Assembly (NCBI GenBank): GCA_965225855.1 | Contig: CBDDCK010000001.1 | Coordinates: forward strand, 201,995 to 265,994 | Direction of reading: 5' to 3' | DNA from: Spirochaetia bacterium | GTDB taxonomy: Bacteria > Spirochaetota > Spirochaetia > SP-2023 | DNA: 64,000 nucleotides | Part shown: positions 5,466 through 61,146 of the stretch, piece by piece | Layout: each line of letters begins with the position of its first letter | Position numbering within the stretch: position 1 is the stretch's first letter | The notes under the pieces: model-generated | What the model saw: the letters and a program-made list of their open reading frames with translations, nothing else | What the model was told of the DNA's origin: nothing | Database searches by the model: none | Translations under genes and position numbers: made by a program

Positions 5466-6195
5466 TACCACCCCACCCAATAACTGCCCCAGCCCAAACC
5501 AACAAACCGAAATAGCCATACAAACGCACATACAAACGCAATTGGGCAATTGGTTTGCCGATGCCAATCTACAAGTCATCGCCTGTCTTGCTGCAATATA
5601 GCTTTCCGCCTTGGTATAAAGTCTTGTTCCGCATTGGTGCAATATAGCTTTCCCACTTCGATCAAGGCCTTGATCCGCATTGGAGTAAGGTATTGATCGA
5701 AGGCGGAAAGTTATATCATAGCAAGGCACTAAAAACCATAAAAATAAGCAGGCCATAGACTTGCTAAAACCCAACAACATCGTAAAAAGCCAAAACTGGG
5801 ACGACCTCAAATAGGGCCAGTATGCCGATGCTTTGACCGTAGCCCACAGCGTCAATGCTGGCATTTTAGAAGTAATGGCACAATATCTGGCTATATATTG
5901 CGGGCCGATGACCCCAACTGCGATATATTGATACCGCCCAATGGTTGGCATGGTTGGGTTGGCACGGTTGGCATGGTTGGCGTTGTGCCTGCTATCGCAT
6001 ACCCTCAAGACTTTTGATTGGCATGGATTTTGAACCACCTTACAACACTAACACACAAAAAAAGTGCCCAAACATAAAAAAACTTACAAAAAGCTTGTAT
6101 AGGCCTTGACGCAACACCCCCCCTAGCAAAATGGGGATTTACAGACTAGCCCGTATGGGTTGGTTAATCTTTATCCATTGTTGGAGGTATTGCTT
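5466..6195 (+). repeat. Conserved ~700-bp non-coding upstream element of the modular lipoprotein family, copy 1
   Basis: Near-identical to ~25493-26217 and ~38271-39014; the proximal ~150 bp recurs inverted at 60879-61030. Confidence 0.9.
6106..6187 (+). promoter_or_regulatory. Candidate sigma70-type promoter (TTGACG, C7 tract, TAGCAAAAT) and GGAGG RBS of the lipoprotein family
   Basis: Same motif upstream of all four full copies, preceded by A-tracts; -10 assignment and spacing uncertain. Confidence 0.45.
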
Positions 6196-8388
6196 ATGTA
6201 TAAGCTCAAACTACTTTTATTGCCAGTAGCCTGGCTACTGGCCTTTATGGCCTTGGCCTGCGCCCCACCCGATGACGATGCGCCGTCTTCTGGGCCGTCT
6301 GGGCCGACTATCAAGAACGCCATGTACGATGTTGGCAAGGCTATCTTAACCGTACAAGGCACTAACTTAAGTCCTACAGAAGCCCAAATCCAAACTATCA
6401 CGGTAGCTGGCTTAGCCTTAAGTTCCTATATTGCAGATGCCAAACCCACTGGGCCAAATAGTAACAATCTGGCAAAAGGTAAGTACCGTATGAAAAGCGA
6501 TGGCACAGCGCTTTGGCTGAAACTTAAAGATGAACATAAAGCTGCTCTTGAGGCCAAGGTGGGTAGCAATGGTCTAAAAAAAGGCTTGCTTAGCGTTAGC
6601 TCTGGTGCTTGGGCGGGTTTAGATACAGCCAAAGACTTAACCGTTAGTAATGTACCCGATAAGCAGTCTAAAGTATCCGATGACAATCAGCCATCTAAGC
6701 AAACTGAAGAAGAGTCGCGTAAGCAAACTGAAGACGAACAAGCTGAAGAAGTCGAAGAGCAGTCGCCTAAGCAAGCTAAAGCCGAACAAGTCGAACAAGC
6801 TGAAGATAAGCAGTCGCCTGAACTACCCGAAGCCGAACAAACCGAAGAAGTCGAAGATAAGCAGTCTAAGACCGAAACCGAAGAGCAGTCGCCTAAAGCT
6901 GCAATTACCCGTGCAAGCTACAATGTTATTTCAGGCTTCTTAGAGATTACAGGTACTAATTTACCAGCAGCAGTTGCAGACTGGGACTTTAGCAAATTGA
7001 CGCTTGTATCCGGTGATGGTACTAATAGATACACATTACCCCGGCACTCAACAGGTCAAGAAAACAGAGCCATAGGTTTTGCAAATAGAAACACAGCCAC
7101 AGGTTCTGAAGCAAGTGCAACAAGCTTATATATTGAGTTAAGGGGTAGTGTAAAAGCCAAAGCCGAGAAGATACTGGTTAACGATGGTGTTCGTGATGCT
7201 AATGGTGCATACAACCTGGAAGCAGCAGCAGGCTTTGCAGGTGGTAGCGCTGAAGACACAACCAACCCTATTACCGTTATTGGGTATACAGCCAGCATCA
7301 CCAAAGTAGACTACGATGCTAATACAGGCGAGTTATTGATTCAGGGTATCAAGTTACCGAGAGCAGTTGCACGATGGGACTTTAGCAAATTGACGCTTGT
7401 ATCCGGTGATGGTAAGAAGAGATACCCATTACCCCAGCACGCAACCGCAGGTGAAAACACAGCCACAGGTTCTAGTGCAGGTACAACCTACTTATATATT
7501 ACTTTAAGCGGTAGTATAAAAGCGGAAGCCGAGAAGATACTGGTTAACGATGGTGTTCGTGATGCTAATGGTGCATACAACCTGGAAGCAGCAGCAGGCT
7601 TTGCAGGTGGTAGCGCTGAAGACACAACCAACCCGATTACCGTTAGTGGGTATGTAAGCCTGCTCGACTCCGTATTATACAGAACAACTGTAAGCCAGTT
7701 AATTATTAAAGGTAGCAGGTTACCGACAGCAGTTGCAGACTGGGACTTTAGCAAATTGACGCTTGTATCCGGTGATGGTAAGAAGAAATACACATTACCA
7801 CGGCACTCAACTGTAGGCGCAAACAGAGCCACAGGTTCTAGTGCAAGTGCAACAGGCATATCTATTACTTTAAGCGGTAGTGTAAAAGCCAAAGTCGAGG
7901 CTATACTGGTTAAGGTTGGTGATAGTGATAATAATGGTGCATACAACCTGGAAGCAGCAGCAGGATTTGCAGGTGGTAGCGCTGAAGACACAAGCAATAA
8001 CCCGATTACCGTTAGTGGGTATGTAAGCCAGATCACCAACTTAGTCTACAATTCACGTACAGGCGTGTTAACGATTAATGGTATTAATTTACCGTCAACA
8101 GTTGCAGAGTGGGACTTTAGCAAATTGACGCTTGTATCCGGTGATGGTAAGAAGAAATACACATTACCCCAGCACGCAATAGGTGAAAACACAGCCACAG
8201 GTTCTAGGGCATTTAACAACGTCTTATATATTACTTTAAGCGGTAATGTAAAAGTGGAAGCCGATGCTATACTTGATACGGTTGGTCTTCAAGATGCTGA
8301 TGGTTATTACAACCTTGAAGCAGCAGCAGGATTTGTAATGGGTAATCCAGCAGACACAAGCAATAACATTATTTATGTTAGTAATTAG
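6196..8388 (+). CDS. Modular repeat surface lipoprotein, copy 1 (A x1, Q/E linker, B x4)
   Basis: GGAGG then ATG 6196; signal peptide MYKLKLLLLPVAWLLAFMALA-C; one LAKGKYR domain and four WDFSKL domains. Confidence 0.9.
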   Translation: MYKLKLLLLPVAWLLAFMALACAPPDDDAPSSGPSGPTIKNAMYDVGKAILTVQGTNLSPTEAQIQTITVAGLALSSYIADAKPTGPNSNNLAKGKYRMKSDGTALWLKLKDEHKAALEAKVGSNGLKKGLLSVSSGAWAGLDTAKDLTVSNVPDKQSKVSDDNQPSKQTEEESRKQTEDEQAEEVEEQSPKQAKAEQVEQAEDKQSPELPEAEQTEEVEDKQSKTETEEQSPKAAITRASYNVISGFLEITGTNLPAAVADWDFSKLTLVSGDGTNRYTLPRHSTGQENRAIGFANRNTATGSEASATSLYIELRGSVKAKAEKILVNDGVRDANGAYNLEAAAGFAGGSAEDTTNPITVIGYTASITKVDYDANTGELLIQGIKLPRAVARWDFSKLTLVSGDGKKRYPLPQHATAGENTATGSSAGTTYLYITLSGSIKAEAEKILVNDGVRDANGAYNLEAAAGFAGGSAEDTTNPITVSGYVSLLDSVLYRTTVSQLIIKGSRLPTAVADWDFSKLTLVSGDGKKKYTLPRHSTVGANRATGSSASATGISITLSGSVKAKVEAILVKVGDSDNNGAYNLEAAAGFAGGSAEDTSNNPITVSGYVSQITNLVYNSRTGVLTINGINLPSTVAEWDFSKLTLVSGDGKKKYTLPQHAIGENTATGSRAFNNVLYITLSGNVKVEADAILDTVGLQDADGYYNLEAAAGFVMGNPADTSNNIIYVSN

Positions 8389-25166: not shown

Positions 25167-25247
25167 GCCCCACCCCCAACCAACACCCCAAAGCAACAAA
25201 CCCGATCAACATTGTATTGCCAAAATTGTTTGCTTGAAGAGCCCCGA
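25167..25247 (+). repeat. Short dispersed repeat with a C-rich end
   Basis: CCCACCCCCAACCAACACCCCAAAGCAACAAACCC..TGTAT.GCCAAAATTGTTTGC.TGAAGAGCCCC recurs inverted at ~61078-61153, partly at ~61607-61650. Confidence 0.85.
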
Positions 25248-25416
25248 CTAAATAGTTGATCCGGGACATGATAACTGAACGGGATAAGACGCGATAACTC
25301 GGGATTTTTTTGGGGACAAATGGAAGGTAAAAATTGACTTACTTTCCAATGAGTCATTGTCGGCAGTAATTGGGCAACAATATGCTTTCAAAATATCATG
25401 GTAACGGGCCACGGTC

Positions 25417-25463
25417 TCAAAAAGCTAGTAAGGTTTTGACTGAAAACCTTACTAGCTTTTTGA
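25417..25463. repeat. Perfect 21-bp inverted repeat with 5-nt loop (REP-like)
   Basis: TCAAAAAGCTAGTAAGGTTTT-GACTG-AAAACCTTACTAGCTTTTTGA. Confidence 0.9.
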
Positions 25464-25492
25464 TTGGCAACCTAGGGATTTTCCAACAAACC

Positions 25493-26217
25493 CAAACCAA
25501 CCAGCCCAAAGCAACAAACCGAAATAGCCATACAAACGCAATTGGGCAATTGGTTTGCCGATGAGAATCTACAAGTCATCGCCTGTCTTGCTACAATATA
25601 GCTTTCCACATTGGTATAAAGTATTGTTCCGCATTGGAGTAATGCCTTACTCCGCATTGGTGCAATATAACTTTCCCACTTCGATCAAGGCCTTGATCCG
25701 CATTGGAGTAAGGTATTGATCGAAGGCGGAGAGATGTATCATAGCAAGGCACTAAAAACCATAAAAATAAGCAGGCCATAGACTTGCTAAAACCCAACAA
25801 CATCGTAGAAAGCCAAAACTGGGACGACCTCAAATAGGGCCAGTATGCCGATGCTTTGACCTTAGCCCACAGCGTCAATGCTGGCATTTTAGACGACTTG
25901 CACAATATCTGGCTATATATTGCGGGCCGATGACCCCAACTGCGATATATTGATACCGCCCAATGGTTGGCATGGTTGGGTTGGCACGGTTGGCATGGTT
26001 GGCGTTGTGCTTGCTATCGCATAGCCTTAAGCCTTTTGATTGGCATGGATTTTGAACCACCTTACAACACTAACACACAAAAAAAGTGCCCAAACATAAA
26101 AAAACTTACAAAAAGCTTGTATAGGCCTTGACGCAACACCCCCCCTAGCAAAATGGGGATTTACAGACTAGCCCGTATGGGTTGGTTAATCTTTATCCAT
26201 TGTTGGAGGTATTGCTT
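25493..26217 (+). repeat. Conserved upstream element of the lipoprotein family, copy 2
   Basis: Near-identical to 5466-6195 with small indels. Confidence 0.9.
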
Positions 26218-28623
26218 ATGTATAAGCTCAAACTACTTTTATTGCCAGTAGCCTGGCTACTGGCCTTTATGGCCTTGGCCTGCGCCCCACCCGATGACGA
26301 TGATCGATCTTCTGGGCCGTCTAAGCCGACTATCAATAACGCCATCTACGACTTTGCTACGGCGCTGTTAACCGTACAAGGTACTGACTTAAGTCCTACA
26401 GAAGCCCAAATCCAAACCATCGTAGTAGATGGCGTAGCCTTAAGTTCCTATACTGCAGATGCCAAACCCACTGGGCCAGATAATAGCAATCTGGCAAAAG
26501 GTAAGTACCGTATGAAAAGCGATGGCACAGCGATTTGGCTTAGACTTACCGATCCACATAAAGCTGCTCTTCAGACCAAGGTGGGTATGAATACCAATGG
26601 TCTAAAAAAAGGGTTGCTTACTAGCTCTGGTGCTTGGGCGGGTTTAAATACAGCCAAAGACTTAACCGTTAGGAATGTACCCGATAAGCAGTCTAAAGTA
26701 TCCGATGACAATCAGCCATCTAAGCAAACTGAAGACGAACAAGCTGAACAAGTCGAACAAGCTGAAGAGCAGTCGCCTGAAGCTGCAATTACCCGTGCAA
26801 GCTACCATGTTGGCACGGCGCTGCTAACTGTACAAGGTTCTAACTTAAGTCCTACAACTGCGACCCAAGCCCAAATCCAAACCATCAAAGTATATGACCT
26901 AGTCTTAAATTCTTATACTGCAGATGGCACAGCCACTGGGGCAGATAGTAGCAGTCTTGCAAAAGGTAAGTACCGTATTAAAAGCGATGGCACAGCGCTT
27001 TGGCTTTACCTTACCGATCAACATAAAACTACTCTGAATGGCAAGGACGGTATGGATAGCAATGGTCTAAAAGATGGGTTGCTTACTAGCACTGGTAGTT
27101 GGGCGGGTTTAGATACAGCCAAAGCCTTAACCGTTAGTGGAAACCCCGCAATTACCGGTGCAAGCTACCATGTTGGCACGGCGCTGTTAACCTTGCAAGG
27201 TACTCTCTTAGCTAGTGCTACCCAAGCCCAAATCCAAACCATCACGGTAGATGGGGTAGCTTTAGATTCCTATACTGCCACAGCCACTGGGCCAGATAGT
27301 CGCGGTCTTGCAAAAGGTAAGTACCGTATTAAAAGCGATGGCACAGCGCTTTGGCTTTACCTTACCGATCGACATAAAACTACTCTGAATGGCAAGACAG
27401 GTATGGATAGCAATGGTCTAAAAGATGGGTTGCTTAGCGTTGGCACTGGTACTTGGGCGGGTTTAAATACAGCCAAAGCCTTGGCCGTTAGTGGAAACCC
27501 CGAAGCTGCAATTACCGGTGCAAGCTACGATGTTGGCACAGCTCTGCTAACCGTACGAGGTTCTAACTTAAATGCTACCAGTGCGACCCAAGCGCAAATC
27601 CAAACCATCGTGGTAGATGGCTTAGCCTTAAGTTCCTATATTGCAGATGAGGATGCCACTGGGCCAGATAGTCGCGGTCTTGCAAAAGGTAAGTACCGCC
27701 TGCATAGCGCTGGCACAGCGCTTTGGCTTTACCTTACCGATCAACATAAAGCTACTCTGAATGGCAAGACAGGTATGGATAGCAATGGTCTAAAAGATGG
27801 GTTGCTTAGCGTTGGCACTGGTACTTGGGCGGGTTTAAATACAGCCAAAGCCTTGGCCGTTAGTGGAAACCCCGCACCCGCAATTACCAGTGCAACCTAC
27901 AATTTTACTACAGGCGTGTTAGTGATTACAGGTGTCAATTTACCGTCAAGAGTGGATCGCTGGGACTTTAGCAAATTGAGGTTTGTCGCAGGTAATGGTC
28001 GTACTAAGAGTCAACCATTATTAGAGCACAACCCAACAGCTTATGATATAAACAGAGCCACAGGTTCTGCAGCAAGTGCAACAAGCTTAACGATTACTTT
28101 AAAGGGTACTGAACAAAGGAAAGCCGATAATATACTGGTTAAGAATGGTAAAAGAGATGCTGATGGTGCATACAACCTGGAAGCAGCAGCAGGATTTGCA
28201 GGTGGTAGGGCTGAAGACACAAGCAATAACCCGATTACCGTTAGTGGGTATGTAGTCAAAATCAACACCGTACGCTACTATGCTGATGATGGCGAGTTAA
28301 ATATTTCTGGTATTAATTTACCGACAACAGTTGCAGAGTGGGACTTTAGCAAATTGACGCTTGTATCCGGTGATGGTAAGAAGAAATACACATTACCCCG
28401 GCACGCAATAGGTGAAAACACAGCCACAGGTTCTGGTGCAACTAGAAACATCTTACAGATTACTTTAAGCGGTAGTGTAAAAGCGGAAGCCAATAAGATA
28501 CTGGTTAAGAATGGTGTTCGTGATGCTAATGGTGCATACAACCTTGAAGCAGCAGCAGGATTTGTAATTGGTGGTTCAGCAGACCCAACCACTGCTATTA
28601 AAGTTTTTGGTGTTGGTAAGTAA
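26218..28623 (+). CDS. Modular repeat surface lipoprotein, copy 2 (A x4, B x2)
   Basis: Same signal peptide and lipobox; four LAKGKYR and two WDFSKL domains. Confidence 0.9.
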   Translation: MYKLKLLLLPVAWLLAFMALACAPPDDDDRSSGPSKPTINNAIYDFATALLTVQGTDLSPTEAQIQTIVVDGVALSSYTADAKPTGPDNSNLAKGKYRMKSDGTAIWLRLTDPHKAALQTKVGMNTNGLKKGLLTSSGAWAGLNTAKDLTVRNVPDKQSKVSDDNQPSKQTEDEQAEQVEQAEEQSPEAAITRASYHVGTALLTVQGSNLSPTTATQAQIQTIKVYDLVLNSYTADGTATGADSSSLAKGKYRIKSDGTALWLYLTDQHKTTLNGKDGMDSNGLKDGLLTSTGSWAGLDTAKALTVSGNPAITGASYHVGTALLTLQGTLLASATQAQIQTITVDGVALDSYTATATGPDSRGLAKGKYRIKSDGTALWLYLTDRHKTTLNGKTGMDSNGLKDGLLSVGTGTWAGLNTAKALAVSGNPEAAITGASYDVGTALLTVRGSNLNATSATQAQIQTIVVDGLALSSYIADEDATGPDSRGLAKGKYRLHSAGTALWLYLTDQHKATLNGKTGMDSNGLKDGLLSVGTGTWAGLNTAKALAVSGNPAPAITSATYNFTTGVLVITGVNLPSRVDRWDFSKLRFVAGNGRTKSQPLLEHNPTAYDINRATGSAASATSLTITLKGTEQRKADNILVKNGKRDADGAYNLEAAAGFAGGRAEDTSNNPITVSGYVVKINTVRYYADDGELNISGINLPTTVAEWDFSKLTLVSGDGKKKYTLPRHAIGENTATGSGATRNILQITLSGSVKAEANKILVKNGVRDANGAYNLEAAAGFVIGGSADPTTAIKVFGVGK

Positions 28624-28800
28624 GTTTTGGTTGTTGCGGTAAGCAAGGCTTGGTTGGCTTTTTTGTTGGGCTATTAGGCTGTATCTTGTTGTTGCAACGC
28701 TTGGTTGGCCAAAAGCAGCCTTGGTAAGTTTTTTTATCAAGGCTGCTTTTGCCAATTACAGCCTTGGTATAAAGTATTGTTCCGCATTGGTGCAATACAT

Positions 28801-28840
28801 CTTTCCGCCTTGGATCAAGGCCTTGATCCAAGGCGGAAAG
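28801..28840. repeat. Perfect 40-bp palindrome
   Basis: CTTTCCGCCTTGGATCAAGG|CCTTGATCCAAGGCGGAAAG within a downstream copy of part of the upstream element. Confidence 0.9.
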
Positions 28841-29232
28841 CTATATCATAGCAAGGCTAGAAAAATTTATTAAGGCTGCTTTTGCCAATTATAGCCTTGG
28901 TAAGTAGAAAAAAATCGAGTTATCATGTCCGATGGCACAAAGTTATCACGTCCTGCATCAACTTTTAACAGTCAGTGACTATCTATAGTCATAGATAGCT
29001 ATAACCTTGATTAGATGTAGCTACTAACTTTAGTAATAGGTTCTGAATAGAGCTAGTCACAATTTATCATAATTTAATATGGCATACAGCCATACATAAA
29101 CAACCAACTTGCTTGCCGCCTAAGCGTATGCTATAAGAGCTAAAAATAGGCCTCAAAGCCAAAAAGCTTTTCAGCGAAACTGGGCCGTATGGATAGATGA
29201 ATAATTAAATGCAATATAGGGGAACGAACATC

Positions 29233-36404: not shown

Positions 36405-36484
36405 CTCTTTTATGCAGAATTAACGAAAAAAGGCAAGCAAGGCTTGGCCAAAGTTTATCTTGTTACAAAAAATTCTTGTTAGTT

Positions 36485-36615
36485 ATTAAGAAATTCTGTT
36501 GTTGGGTATTAAGAAACTCTCTTGTTGGGCATTAAGAAACTCTCTTGTTGGGCATTAAGAAACTCTCTTGTTGGGCATTAAGAAATTCTGTTGTTGGGCA
36601 TTAAGAGACTCTCTT
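36485..36615. repeat. Tandem repeat of a 23-bp unit, ~5.7 copies
   Basis: Unit ATTAAGAAACTCTCTTGTTGGGC with minor variants, head-to-tail, no spacers. Confidence 0.95.
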
Positions 36616-36762
36616 AATTGTTATGCCAACGTTCTGGCAATAATTATTCAAAGCTATTACTAAAAAAAGTTTGTAGCCTTAATAAATTTTTCCAGCCTTG
36701 GTATTTTCTCCATACCAAGGCTGCAATAGGTCAATGCAAGCGTTGCAACAACCAAACCTTAC

Positions 36763-37021
36763 TTACCAACTTGTAACTTTAATACTAGTGGTTGGGTCTT
36801 TTGTGCTACCACCTGCAAATCCTGCTGCTGCTTCAAGGTTGCCAGCCTTAACCAGTATCTTATCGGCTTTGGCTTTTACAGTACCGCTTAAAGTAATAAT
36901 TAAGTAGGTTGCACTTGCTTCAGAACCTGTGGCTTTGTTTGCACCTGCAGTTGAGTGCTGTGGTAATGTGAATCTCTTAGTACGATCACCGGATACAAGC
37001 GTCAATTTGCTAAAGTCCCAG
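36763..37021 (-). pseudogene. Promoterless 3' fragment (C-terminal part of a B domain) of the lipoprotein family; possible silent alternative C-terminus
   Basis: Open frame WDFSKLTLVSGDRTKRFTLPQH...GNLEAAAGFAGGSTKDPTTSIKVTSW-stop; homology starts abruptly at the WDFSK codons; family 3' flank retained. Confidence 0.9.
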
Positions 37022-38281: not shown

Positions 38282-39014
38282 CCCACCCCCCAAACCCACC
38301 CCACCTAATAACTACCCCAGCCCCAAAGCAACAAACCCAAAGCAACAAACCGAAATAGCCATACAAACGCACATACAAACGCAATTGGGCAATTGGTTTG
38401 CCGATGCCAATCTACAAGTCATCGCCTGCTTTACCACAATACACCTTTCCGGCTTGGTATAAAGTATTATTCCAACTTGGTGCAATATAACTTTCCGCCT
38501 TCGATCAAGGCCTTGATCCGCATTGGAGTAAGGTATTGATCGAAGGTGGAGAGATGTATCATAGCAAGGCACTAAAAACCATAAAAATAAGCAAGCCATA
38601 GACTTGCTAAAACCCAACAACATCGTAAAAAGCCAAAACTGGGACGACCTCAAATAGGGCCAGTATGCCGATGCTTTGACCTTAGCCCACAGCGTCAATG
38701 CTGGCATTTTAGACGACTTGCACAATATCTGGCTATATATTGCGGGCCTATGACCCCAACTGGGATATATTGATACCACCCAATGGTTGGCATGGTTGGC
38801 GTTGCGCCTGCTATCGCATAGCCTTAAGCCTTTTGATTGGCATGGATTTTGAACCACCTTACAACACTAACACACAAAAAAAGTGCCCAAACATAAAAAA
38901 ACTTACAAAAAGCTTGTATAGGCCTTGACGCAACACCCCCCCTAGCAAAATGGGGATTTACAGACTAGCCCGTATGGGTTGGCCAATCTTTATCCCTTGT
39001 TGGAGGTATTGCTT
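38271..39014 (+). repeat. Conserved upstream element of the lipoprotein family, copy 3
   Basis: Near-identical to copies 1 and 2, with fewer GGTTGGCAT-type units. Confidence 0.9.
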
Positions 39015-41045
39015 ATGTATAAGCTCAAACTACTTTTATTGCCTGTAGCATTGCTACTGGCCTTTATGGCCTTGGCCTGCGCACCACCCGATGACGATGA
39101 TCGATCTTCTGGGCCATCTTCTGGGCCGTCTATCAATAATGCCATCTACGACTTTGCTACGGCTCTGTTAACCGTACAAGGTACTGACTTAAGTCCTACA
39201 GAAGCGCAAATCCAAACTATCACGGTAGCTGGCCTAGCCTTAAGTTCCTATATTGCAGATGCCAAACCCACTGGGCCAAATAGTAACAGTCTTGCAAAAG
39301 GTAAGTACCGTATGAAAAGCGATGGCACAGCGCTTTGGCTGAAACTTAAAGATGAACATAAAGCTGCTCTTGAGGCCAAGGTGGGTAGCAATGGTCTAAA
39401 AAAAGGGTTGCTTACTAGCTCTGGTGCTTGGGCGGGTTTAGATACAGCCAAAGACTTAACCGTTAGCAATATACCCGATAAGCAGTCGCCTAAGCAAGCT
39501 GAACAAGCTGAACAAGCTGAAGAAGAGTCGCCTAAGCAACCTAAAGACGAACAAGTCGAACAAGCTGAAGAGGAGTCGCCTAAGCAACCTAAAGCCGAAG
39601 AGCAGTCGCCTAAAGCCGCAATTACCGGTGCAAGCTACAATGTTGGCACGGCGCTGTTAACCTTGCAAGGTACTGACTTAGGTAGTGCGACCCAAGCCCA
39701 AATCCAAACCATCGTAGTAGATGGGGTAGCCTTAAGTTCCTATACTGCAGATGACGATGCCACTGGGCCAGATAGTCGCGGTCTTGCAAAAGGTAAGTAC
39801 CGCCTACATAGCGCTGGCACAGCGCTTTGGCTTTACCTTACCGATCAACATAAAACTACTCTGAATGGCAAGACAGGTATGGATAGCAATGGTCTAAAAG
39901 ATGGGTTGCTTACTAGCACTGGTACTTGGGCGGGTTTAGATACAGCCAAAGGCTTGGCCGTTAGTGGAAACCCCGCAATTACCCGTGCAACTTACCATGT
40001 TGGCACGGCTCTGTTAACTGTACAAGGTACTGACTTAGCTAGTGCGACCCAAGCGCAAATCCAAACCATCGTGGTAGATGGCTTAGCCTTAAGTTCCTAT
40101 ATTGCAGATGAGGATGCCACTGGGGCAGATAGTCGCGGTCTTGCAAAAGGTAAGTACCGCCTGCATAGCGCTGGCACAGCCATTTGGCTTTACCTTACCG
40201 ATCGACATAAAACTACTCTGAATGGCAAGACAGGTATGGATACCAATGGTAGAAAAGTCGGGTTGCTTGCTAGCACTGGTGCTTGGGCAGGTTTAGATAC
40301 AGCCAAAGACTTGGCCGTTATTGGAAACCCACCCGCAATTACCAGTGCAACCTACAATGTTGCTACAAGTGTGTTAGTGATTACAGGTGTCAATTTACCA
40401 AAATCAGTGTATGGCTGGGACTTTAGCAAATTGAGGTTTGTCGCAGGTGATGGCCGTAAGAGTCAACCATTATTCAAGCACAGCACAACCGGTAAAGGTA
40501 TACACAGATCCATAGGTTCTGCAGCAAGTGCAACAAGCTTAACGATTACTTTAAGCGGTAGTATTCAAAAAGGGAACGCCAATAAGATATTGGTTAAGAA
40601 TGGTGATAGTGATGATGCTGGTGCATACAACCTGGAAGCAGCAGCAGGATTTGCAGGTGGTAGCGCTGAAGACCTAACCAACCCTATTACCGTTAGTGGG
40701 TATGTAATTTCTATCACTGGAGCATACTACAGTCCTAATAATGGCAATTTATTGATTCAGGGTACTAATTTACCGAGAACAATTGCAGAGTGGGACTTTA
40801 GCAAATTGACGCTTGTATCCGGTGATGGTAGTAAGAGATACAAATTACCCCAGCACTCAACCACAGGTGAAAACAGAGCCGAAGGTTCTAATGCAAGTGC
40901 AATAAGCGTATTGATTACTTTAAGCGGTAGTGTAAAAGCCAAAGTCGATGCTATACTGGTTAAGAATGGCAACCTGGAAGCAGCAGCAGGATTTGTACCT
41001 GGTAGCGCAGAAGACCTAACCAATAAGATTATAGTTTTTAATTGA
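39015..41045 (+). CDS. Modular repeat surface lipoprotein, copy 3 (A x3, B x2)
   Basis: Nearly identical signal peptide and lipobox; three LAKGKYR and two WDFSKL domains. Confidence 0.9.
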   Translation: MYKLKLLLLPVALLLAFMALACAPPDDDDRSSGPSSGPSINNAIYDFATALLTVQGTDLSPTEAQIQTITVAGLALSSYIADAKPTGPNSNSLAKGKYRMKSDGTALWLKLKDEHKAALEAKVGSNGLKKGLLTSSGAWAGLDTAKDLTVSNIPDKQSPKQAEQAEQAEEESPKQPKDEQVEQAEEESPKQPKAEEQSPKAAITGASYNVGTALLTLQGTDLGSATQAQIQTIVVDGVALSSYTADDDATGPDSRGLAKGKYRLHSAGTALWLYLTDQHKTTLNGKTGMDSNGLKDGLLTSTGTWAGLDTAKGLAVSGNPAITRATYHVGTALLTVQGTDLASATQAQIQTIVVDGLALSSYIADEDATGADSRGLAKGKYRLHSAGTAIWLYLTDRHKTTLNGKTGMDTNGRKVGLLASTGAWAGLDTAKDLAVIGNPPAITSATYNVATSVLVITGVNLPKSVYGWDFSKLRFVAGDGRKSQPLFKHSTTGKGIHRSIGSAASATSLTITLSGSIQKGNANKILVKNGDSDDAGAYNLEAAAGFAGGSAEDLTNPITVSGYVISITGAYYSPNNGNLLIQGTNLPRTIAEWDFSKLTLVSGDGSKRYKLPQHSTTGENRAEGSNASAISVLITLSGSVKAKVDAILVKNGNLEAAAGFVPGSAEDLTNKIIVFN

Positions 41046-41169: not shown

Positions 41170-41214
41170 CGAGTTATCACGTCCGATGGCACAAAGTTAT
41201 CACGTCCTGCATCA
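41170..41214 (+). repeat. Transposon-like right-end motif downstream of copy 3
   Basis: CGAGTTATCACGTCCGATGGCACAAAGTTATCACGTCCTGCATCA; one mismatch to 28916-28960. Confidence 0.85.
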
Positions 41215-58761: not shown

Positions 58762-58806
58762 TGATGCAGGACGTGATAACTTTGTGCCATCGGACGTGAT
58801 AACTCG
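58762..58806 (-). repeat. Transposon-like right-end motif downstream of copy 4
   Basis: Reverse complement of 41170-41214. Confidence 0.85.
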
Positions 58807-59000: not shown

Positions 59001-60878
59001 TTATAACTTGAATATACTATTGGTTAGGTCTTCTGGACTACCAGGTACAAATTCTGCTGCTGCTTCAAAGTTGTATGCACCATTATTATCACTTTTACCA
59101 TTCTTAACCAGTATAGCATTGACTTTGGCTTTTACACTACCGCTTAAAGTAATCAATAAGCTTGTTGCACTTGCTTGAGAACCTGTGGCTTTGTTTGCAC
59201 CTTCGGTTGAGTGCCGTGGTAATGTGAATCTCTTCTTACCATCACCGGATACAAGCGTCAATTTGCTAAAGTCCCAGTCTGCAACTGCTCTCGGTAACCT
59301 GCTACCACTAATATATAACTGGCCTGTATTAGCTATGTAGGTTACGGAGTCGATCTGGCTTACGTAGCCCCTAACGGTAATCGGATTGGTTGTGTCTTCT
59401 GCGCTACCACCTGCAAAGCCTGCTGCTGCTTCCAGGTTGTATGCACCATTATTATCACTATCACCAGTCTTAACCAGTATCTTATTGGCTTCCGCTTTTA
59501 CATTACCGCTTAAAGTAATCTTTAAGAATCCTGTATTTGGACTAGAACCTGAGGCTGTATTTTCACCTGCAGTTGAGTGCCGGGGTAATGGGTATCTCTT
59601 GTTACCATCACCGGATACAAGCGTCAATTTGCTAAAGTCCCATCCTGCAACTGTTTTCGGTAAACCGCTACCCTCAATATCTAACACGCCTGTATTAGCA
59701 TCGTAGGTTGCTGTGTCGATGCTGGCTACATACCCCCTAACGGTAATAGGGTTGGTTGTGTCTGCTGCACTACCACCTGCAAATCCTGCTGCTGCTTCCA
59801 GGTTGTATGCACCATTAGCATCACTATCACCATCGTTAACCAGTATCTTATTGGCTTTGGCTTTTACACTACCTCTTAACTCAATAAATAATTTTGTTGC
59901 ACTTGCTTGAGAACCTATGGTTGTGTTTCTACCTAAAGTTGAGTGCTTAGGTAATGTGAATCTCTTACTACCATCACCGGATACAAGCGTCAATTTGCTA
60001 AAGTCCCAGTCTGCAACTGCTGCTGGTAAATTAGTACCTGTAATCTCTAAGAAGCCTGTATTAACATTGTAGGTTGCACGGGTAATTGCGGGGTCGGGTA
60101 GCTTAGGCGACTGATCTTCGGCTTGTTCGACTTCTTCAGCTTGTTCGGCTTTAGGTTGCTTAGGCGACTCCTCTTCGGTTTCTTCGGCTTCGGGTAGTTT
60201 ACGCGACTCCTCTTCGGTTTCTTCGGCTTCGGGTAGCTTAAGCGACTGATCTTCAGTTTCGGTCTTAGACTGCTTATCTTCGACTTCTTCGGTTTGTTCA
60301 GCTTGTTTGGCTTGTTCAGCTTGTTCGACTTTAGCTTGCTTAGGCGACTGCTGTTCGGTTTGTTCGGCTTGTTCGGCTTGCTTAGATGGCTTATCGGGTA
60401 TATTGCTAACGGTTAAGTCTTTGGCTGTATCTAAACCCGCCCAAGCACCAGTGCCAACGCTAAGCAACCCTTTTTTTAGACCATCGCTACCCACCTTGGC
60501 CTCAAGAGTAGCTTTATCGTCATCGGTAAGTTTCAGCCAAAGCGCTGTGCCATCGCTTTTAATACGGTACTTACCTTTTGCAAGACCGTTACTATTTACA
60601 CCAGTGGCATCCTCATCTGCAGTATAGGAACTTAAGGCTACACCATTTGTTCGGCTTCCTACCCTGATAGTTTGGATTTGCGCTTCTGTAGGACTTAAGT
60701 CAGTACCTTGTACGGTTAAGATAGCCGTAGCAAAGTCGTAGATAGCGTTATTGATAGTCGGCCCAGACGGCCCAGAAGGCCCAGAAGATGGTGCATCGTC
60801 ATCGGGTGGGGCGCAGGCCAAGGCCATAAAGGCCAGTAGCCAGGCTACAGGCAATAAAAGTAGTTTGAGCTTATACAT
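59001..60878 (-). CDS. Modular repeat surface lipoprotein, copy 4 (A x1, long Q/E linker, B x3)
   Basis: Same signal peptide and lipobox; one LAKGKYR and three WDFSKL domains. Confidence 0.9.
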   Translation of the reverse strand: MYKLKLLLLPVAWLLAFMALACAPPDDDAPSSGPSGPSGPTINNAIYDFATAILTVQGTDLSPTEAQIQTIRVGSRTNGVALSSYTADEDATGVNSNGLAKGKYRIKSDGTALWLKLTDDDKATLEAKVGSDGLKKGLLSVGTGAWAGLDTAKDLTVSNIPDKPSKQAEQAEQTEQQSPKQAKVEQAEQAKQAEQTEEVEDKQSKTETEDQSLKLPEAEETEEESRKLPEAEETEEESPKQPKAEQAEEVEQAEDQSPKLPDPAITRATYNVNTGFLEITGTNLPAAVADWDFSKLTLVSGDGSKRFTLPKHSTLGRNTTIGSQASATKLFIELRGSVKAKANKILVNDGDSDANGAYNLEAAAGFAGGSAADTTNPITVRGYVASIDTATYDANTGVLDIEGSGLPKTVAGWDFSKLTLVSGDGNKRYPLPRHSTAGENTASGSSPNTGFLKITLSGNVKAEANKILVKTGDSDNNGAYNLEAAAGFAGGSAEDTTNPITVRGYVSQIDSVTYIANTGQLYISGSRLPRAVADWDFSKLTLVSGDGKKRFTLPRHSTEGANKATGSQASATSLLITLSGSVKAKVNAILVKNGKSDNNGAYNFEAAAEFVPGSPEDLTNSIFKL

Positions 60879-61146
60879 AAGCAATACCTCCAACAATGGA
60901 TAAAGATTCGCCAACCCATACGGGCTAGTCTGTAAATCCCTATTTTGCTAGGGGGGGTGTTGCGTCAAGGCCTATGTAAGCTTTTTGTAAGCTTTTTACA
61001 AGTTTTTTTATGTTTGGGGTACTTTTTTTGTGTTAGGGTACTTTAGCTTGGGCTATATGGGCTTTTGGGTATTTAGCTGGGGCTCTTCACGCAAACAATT
61101 TTGGCCATACAGTGTTTTGGGTTTGTTGCTTTGGGGTGTTGGTTGG

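Follow-up and report, generated by a model that had tools for sequence, protein, structure and literature searches.

We analysed a window of 64,000 nucleotides (nt) from the genome of a Spirochaetia bacterium (GenBank assembly GCA_965225855.1, hereafter G000; contig CBDDCK010000001.1, positions 201,995 to 265,994), in which a gene for a predicted lipoprotein lies between two inverted, transposon-like ends (25257..28960). Coordinates of this element are positions in the window, and C3, C4 and C5 are contigs of G000. The left end (L; 25257..25349, + strand) is phage-derived DNA with a TGA tip and two 12-bp sites at 25265 and 25288. It is followed by an upstream region common to the gene family (25350..26217, +) that contains palindromic repeats and a promoter-like site; the sequence is conserved in the family, and its promoter function is predicted. 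The site is made up of TTGACG (26128-26133), a run of seven Cs (26139-26145) and TAGCAAAAT (26146-26154), and the C run between these boxes is mostly 6-7 long across copies, with extremes of 5 and 9. The cargo gene (26218..28623, +) is the single long open reading frame (ORF) between the ends, with no transposase inside, and encodes a predicted lipoprotein of 801 amino acids (aa) with a signal peptide, the lipobox ALA-C22 and repeats of ~120 aa. The right end (R; 28898..28960, -) again has two 12-bp sites and a TGA tip, at 28960. Beyond the left tip similarity continues into the flanking DNA (25168..25256, +), a repeat from the upstream regions of lipoprotein genes that ends in AATAGT, and the same junction is found in four other copies. 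The outer right flank, ACTTTT (28961..28966, +), differs from the left one; this copy therefore has no target duplication, as an earlier note on this DNA had also reported.

Both ends lie where that note had placed them and align without gaps, with 29 of 35 positions matching outside a 10-nt spacer, and the inward run of seven Ts that it described follows each of them. Paired sites 23 bp apart occur four times in the window (25265, 28918, 41172 and 58770), and shuffled sequences gave any match in 0 of 100 cases. Two of these pairs belong to right ends behind family copy 3 (41170..41214, -) and family copy 4 (58762..58806, +), neither of which has the T7 run. As described earlier, the three right ends diverge directly beyond ...TGCATCA, where their flanks read ACTTTT, TAGAAT and CATAGT.

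The same end motifs bound a prophage of ~36.1 kb on C5 (~1257688-1293766). Positions 25268-25349 of the left end are 91% identical to the prophage left end, and the right end is 95% identical to its counterpart over 63 nt. The prophage encodes Mu-type small and large terminase subunits, portal, F, protease I, major head T, sheath, baseplate and tail proteins, together with GemA, Mor, a repressor, an AAA_22 ATPase and a transposase of 586 aa. This transposase retains D144, D238 and E274, and the A and B genes are full length. It is 31% identical to the B3 transposase and 28-37% identical to transposases of B3, BcepMu and their relatives among the 25 records listed of 69; these 25 listed phage matches are all annotated as transposase or integrase, or are unannotated at the match. 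Pfam Mu-transpos_C had no match anywhere, and the controls were likewise unmatched. Within this assembly, which is 94% complete, the phage transposase gene was the sole rve match found, and no IstB match exceeded the cut-off. Tn7-like elements carry a TnsA/TnsB/TnsC set and make 5-bp duplications; duplications here, described below, are 6 bp long with none at 5, and TnsA was not searched for. The earlier note had likened the ends to those of IS21-, Mu- and Tn7-like elements. Its view of a transposase-less, DDE-type cargo is supported, as is the Mu-type kinship, but an IS21- or Tn7-like parent gives way to a transposable phage, and the C5 prophage is an element with the same ends and a DDE transposase, such as the note had proposed to look for.

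Related prophages are present in two of three sister genomes. At each terminus of the G002 prophage, TGA is followed by five bases and two sites 23 bp apart, and the left end of the G001 prophage is identical to a cassette left end at 44 of 58 positions. The cassette tips are therefore true phage tips. On sequence comparison, the cassette ends are demonstrably the termini of a resident B3/BcepMu-type transposable prophage. Judged by its gene content, the helper on C5 is a damaged member of this group: gene set and size (36-39 kb) fit, whereas it lacks a pair of intact TG...CA tips with a flanking 6-bp duplication. Further prophage pieces reach contig ends (C4:334779-343005, C3:1-774 and possibly C5:2030137). 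At C3:774-928, a prophage right end is fused directly to part of a phage repressor gene, as if one copy had inserted into another.

We found 17 L-gene-R pairs in G000, 2.35-3.7 kb long. Five of them are flanked by a perfect 6-bp direct repeat, with none at other lengths from 3 to 9, and 0 of 272 non-cognate flank pairings match at 6 bp; flank composition predicts 0.024 duplications (P ~3e-11). Phage B3 makes 6-bp duplications, according to the available part of PMC8705779. In the target flanks, the two central positions are preferentially T and A. For the unit C5:1722378-1725605, a contig of run X6, from a strain ~99% identical in the flanks, skips 3234 nt, corresponding to the 3228-nt unit plus one 6-mer, and the six letters fit on either side. 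An empty site in a related genome, the absence of which would have spoken against the earlier note's reading, is thereby found for one copy. A paralogous unfilled target for unit C5:1449578 lies at C5:1441005, where the 6-mer is shared together with the adjacent 6 nt on the left and 40 nt on the right, and the sequence differs further left. Within the genome, no exact empty join was found for any of the five duplicated sites, even with up to three mismatches. Rejoining the flanks of the 17 pairs revealed no convincing interrupted gene, with two short ORFs crossing a junction, and the insertions appear intergenic. Five units were inserted whole, as one piece, as shown by their duplications and, for one of them, also by the strain-level empty site. 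At the rpmB-ung locus, which the earlier note had singled out for such a comparison, ung has different downstream genes in all three congeners, with no synteny, and no contig joining the two flanks was found among the 15 joints listed of 49.

By tblastn, the lipoprotein family comprises 115 loci in G000, whose end-bearing status was assigned by similarity to phage end DNA. An intact-gene filter is passed by 99 loci, occupying 202,164 of 2,712,625 bases (7.5% of the genome); the other 16 are fragments, lie at contig edges or have divergent starts. The family is dispersed, with two of 108 loci (>1 kb) having a neighbour within 2 kb. Phage-end DNA adjoins both sides of 19 loci, the left side only of 14, the right side only of 8 and neither side of 74. 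Consistent paired orientation, on which the earlier note's reading depended, is evident from the 64 end motifs genome-wide, 57 of which face a lipoprotein gene (30 L upstream and 27 R downstream). Two of the other seven break this rule and five lie far from genes, three of these being prophage right ends; the motif at C5:1875763, included in the 64, is probably a chance match. The cassette left tips are TGAAAGAG (18 copies), TGATCCGG (6), TGATACGG (4) and others, and the cassette right ends are 92-99% identical to that of the C5 prophage, with 52-349 nt of phage DNA adjoining the end motifs. Searches of metagenome and viral contigs with the end patterns gave 0 exact matches.

The cargo protein matches no Pfam family convincingly over the cut-off; a match to CrtC, which lay far from the best fold evidence and had 0 passing stretches, was discarded. 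Beyond G000 and four European Nucleotide Archive (ENA) contigs (6 proteins), three weak relatives were found among 94 matches, all large proteins with fn3, immunoglobulin (Ig)-like or SWM repeats, and a family query gave no match in 30 related genomes. A fold model of the last two repeats built from 28 paralogues reached a pLDDT (predicted local distance difference test) of 88.9, whereas the single-sequence fold (pLDDT 50) was unusable. Both repeats are modelled as Ig-like beta sandwiches. The best structural match of the model is a domain of the S-layer protein SbsC (Z score 8.5, root-mean-square deviation 2.8, 95 residues), and many other Ig-like domains match; Foldseek returned nothing beyond antibody matches of low template-modelling score. 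A surface location and a role in adhesion are predicted.

We consider it very probable that these units are natural counterparts of mini-Mu, in which a predicted Ig-like host lipoprotein gene between B3-type phage tips has been copied to new sites by a prophage-supplied transposase. Mobilisation of a DDE-type cargo in trans is supported by the prophage with the same ends, the fixed orientation, the 6-bp duplications at five of 17 pairs and the one empty site, and we infer that the transposase of the C5 prophage in particular was responsible. Under such a mechanism, a phage would have inserted beside a lipoprotein gene and then lost its interior, leaving the first L-promoter-gene-R unit, and every copy would be a self-contained expression unit for a predicted Ig-like surface protein. 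Transposase A would bind the paired 12-bp sites and cut at the CA-3' tips, and A together with the B ATPase would join the tips to target DNA at positions staggered by 6 nt, probably in a replicative manner like that of Mu, a mode taken from Mu biology as covered in the accessible part of PMC3145075. Later recombination and gene conversion among ~100 similar cargo genes, along with Mu-type adjacent deletions, would have swapped flanks and stripped ends, which could account for mismatched pairs such as the window's copy and for lone ends.

Several observations weigh against this interpretation. Twelve of the 17 pairs, including the window's copy, are without a duplication, and the empty site is one contig (depth 7.6, 34 letters on its short side) from one of two samples, the three runs of the other having no coverage of the junction. 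On trees of either end of the gene, copies with and without phage ends are intermingled (24 changes; means after shuffling 26.1 and 24.0); these trees, which left out the 16 loci that fail the intact-gene filter, have unsettled bootstraps and do not give the order of capture and loss. The C5 prophage is damaged, with an intact right tip, a left tip that is not conserved, no duplication, and split tape-measure and baseplate-J genes. Because of this damage and the several variants of cassette left tips, other phage copies may have supplied the ends and the enzyme. Finally, 74 of the 115 loci have no phage-end DNA. The earlier note's proposal that the family spread as cargo mobilised in trans therefore holds for part of the family and not for the whole, and phage-driven jumping is shown for that part of the spread only.

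This last point also bears on the alternative that fares best, to which we give somewhat less than an even chance: other processes, such as recombination or an older element with different ends, had already enlarged and dispersed the family, and phage ends captured some members late, in a minority of copies. The end-less majority is what this history would leave, although end loss through recombination can explain such copies as well. Late capture is also favoured by the left junction of the window's copy, which lies inside a lipoprotein upstream repeat, so that end-less genes must have predated that insertion. A second terminal motif, TGTAA...AATGAAA with internal repeats, points the same way: it has 21 matches in G000 and 0 in the reversed genome, and 17 of the 21 are no more than about 630 nt away from a family gene, usually on its 3' side. 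However, no duplication-flanked pair of this motif was found. A further point for late capture comes from G002, which expanded an unrelated family of predicted ~290-aa lipoproteins (123 matches, with 18 weak matches in G001) without phage ends; yet this family is mostly tandem, with 45 of the 54 closest members having a neighbour within 3 kb, whereas that of G000 is dispersed, as jumping would give. Late capture is compatible with natural mini-Mu units, as it concerns their share in the spread and not the mechanism.

It is also conceivable, but rather unlikely, that a related phage now lost or unassembled did the moving, the C5 prophage being only a relative of the true helper. The several left-tip variants, the damaged left tip on C5 and the prophage pieces at contig ends are in line with this, as is a second, ENA-held assembly with phage-like genes between two family members. 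Against it, the cassette right ends are 92-99% identical to that of the C5 prophage, in which neither A nor B is truncated and the catalytic residues are preserved, and a damaged tip is no bar to supply in trans. That separate phage insertions around resident genes left the ends as debris, and the genes never moved as a unit, is very improbable: phage fragments do lie near several genes and most pairs are without a duplication, but five exact 6-bp duplications surround whole units, the L-gene-R orientation is fixed, and an empty site that is without gene and ends together contradicts separate insertions. A repeat-driven assembly artefact is barely credible, for although contigs break at repeats and the element is not spanned by short-read contigs, flanks and duplications are distinct at each site, sister phages have the same end design, and a separate assembly also has several dispersed family members.

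Within the preferred reading of natural mini-Mu units, the window's copy is likely a recombinant, with its left arm from one insertion and its right arm from another, joined through recombination among cargo genes. Its left junction, common to four other copies, falls in the repeat normally found ahead of family genes. Over 3.1 kb, the body of this copy shares 93.6% identity with a copy that has no phage ends, and two end-less copies match its 5' segment without a difference in aligned columns. A rearrangement test that cross-matched left and right flank 6-mers between copies was not significant (3 observed against 1.1 expected, P ~0.10), nor was a GC-skew break at cassettes (r = 0.00, n=72; control range -0.09 to 0.41). 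The window holds three other members of the family, namely copy 1 (6160..8388, +) without phage-end DNA on either side, copy 3 (38979..41045, +) and copy 4 (59001..60914, -), each with a right end only, besides a 3' gene fragment (36730..37020, -) adjoined by 23-bp tandem repeats (36463-36623). Related palindromic repeats of 22-23 and 46 bp occur in cassette flanks and within prophage genes.

Other arrangements were seen elsewhere in G000. A 14.1-kb L...R span (C5:1027022-1041147) contains two family genes, an ABC transporter operon, a MATE-like gene and phage fragments; there is a single mismatch between its flanks, CTTTGC and GTTTGC, and it is possibly a larger composite unit. Two right ends bracket one family gene at C5:1594979-1598895. 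Divergent members without a standard start (C5:571730-574798 and 353730-357551) are closest, at 37-40%, to a distant relative beside housekeeping genes in another assembly and are candidates for the ancestral gene. According to its gene list, the second, ENA-held assembly has three family genes in ~19 kb, with a sugar-metabolism block and a phage-like block between them.

The second terminal motif (sites at C5:1708243(-), 463886(+), 1158566(-), 1149479(+) and 17 more) presumably resembles IS21-like ends, but neither an IstB match over the cut-off nor a parent transposase was found in G000; its position beside 17 family genes suggests that another element took part there. Orphan motifs related to TGTAA... 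occur in G001 and G003. In G002, which served as a control, the end motifs are the prophage's own two; the G002 lipoprotein family occurs at C1:257938-274472 and elsewhere, and one of its arrays adjoins the prophage left end. Since the G002 family grew mostly in tandem and without phage ends, lipoprotein expansion is characteristic of the genus, and what distinguishes G000 is dispersal by phage ends.

The closest described arrangement is that of the mobile insertion cassettes (MICs) of Xanthomonas, in which transcription activator-like effector (TALE) genes lie between ends of TnXax1, a Tn3-family transposon. In the portion of PMC4337579 available, these resemble the present units in having a passenger between transposon-derived inverted ends with no transposase of its own, in that some copies carry duplications and others a solo end, and in the amplification of a repetitive multigene family. 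Compared with that account (PMC4337579), the present ends come from a transposable phage and not from an insertion sequence (IS) or Tn3, the duplication is 6 bp instead of 5, the copies are dispersed singly, and the cargo is a predicted surface lipoprotein without a Pfam family over the cut-off. Inverted ends, no internal transposase, a cognate transposase elsewhere and insertion as a unit are all found, the last for five of 17 pairs and one empty site but not for the window's own copy. By its architecture, the unit is a MIC variant rather than a plain MIC because its ends match a transposable prophage and not an IS or Tn3. The units are also like the engineered mini-Mu(LR) and mini-D3112, in which phage L and R ends alone surround foreign DNA without transposition genes; as far as the accessible text of PMC3145075 and PMC8705779 describes them, these receive transposase and ATPase in trans and are used for chromosomal gene amplification. 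Unlike them (PMC3145075, PMC8705779), the present units are natural and multi-copy, with B3-type ends of two detectable sites each and a host gene as cargo. The helper itself resembles B3/BcepMu-type and Leptospira transposable prophages in its TG...CA tips, 36-kb size, B3-like transposase, GemA, Mor and contractile tail, and the 6-bp duplication seen at the cassettes is a shared feature as well, but those covered in the available part of PMC8705779 are whole prophages, whereas here ends outnumber the phage ~20-fold and bracket a host gene. In the Borrelia cp32 Erp, Rev and Mlp families, surface lipoprotein genes have likewise multiplied in connection with a phage and in a spirochaete-type host; as presented in the accessible part of PMC10016077, their genes ride whole plasmid prophages, in contrast to the phage-free chromosomal units here. 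Full-text literature searches, which did not cover subscription journals, found no description of a natural cassette that has phage ends, occurs in multiple copies and carries a host gene.

Transposable phages are known to mutate and rearrange their hosts, and mini-Mu is a laboratory tool. Natural phage-free units that carry a host gene, occupy many sites and differ between strains represent a route to large, variable surface repertoires. More tentatively, the host may use its transposable phage as a standing gene-amplifier, with ends and a retained transposase seeding surface-protein units, recombination shuffling them and strains of one population coming to differ in the copies that they carry; units might even travel between cells in phage heads. 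If true, this would be a surface-variation system built from a virus. The native ends and enzyme offer the basis of a transposon tool for bacteria that have received little study, and the system allows a direct test of whether the transposase of a defective prophage is kept because it serves the host.

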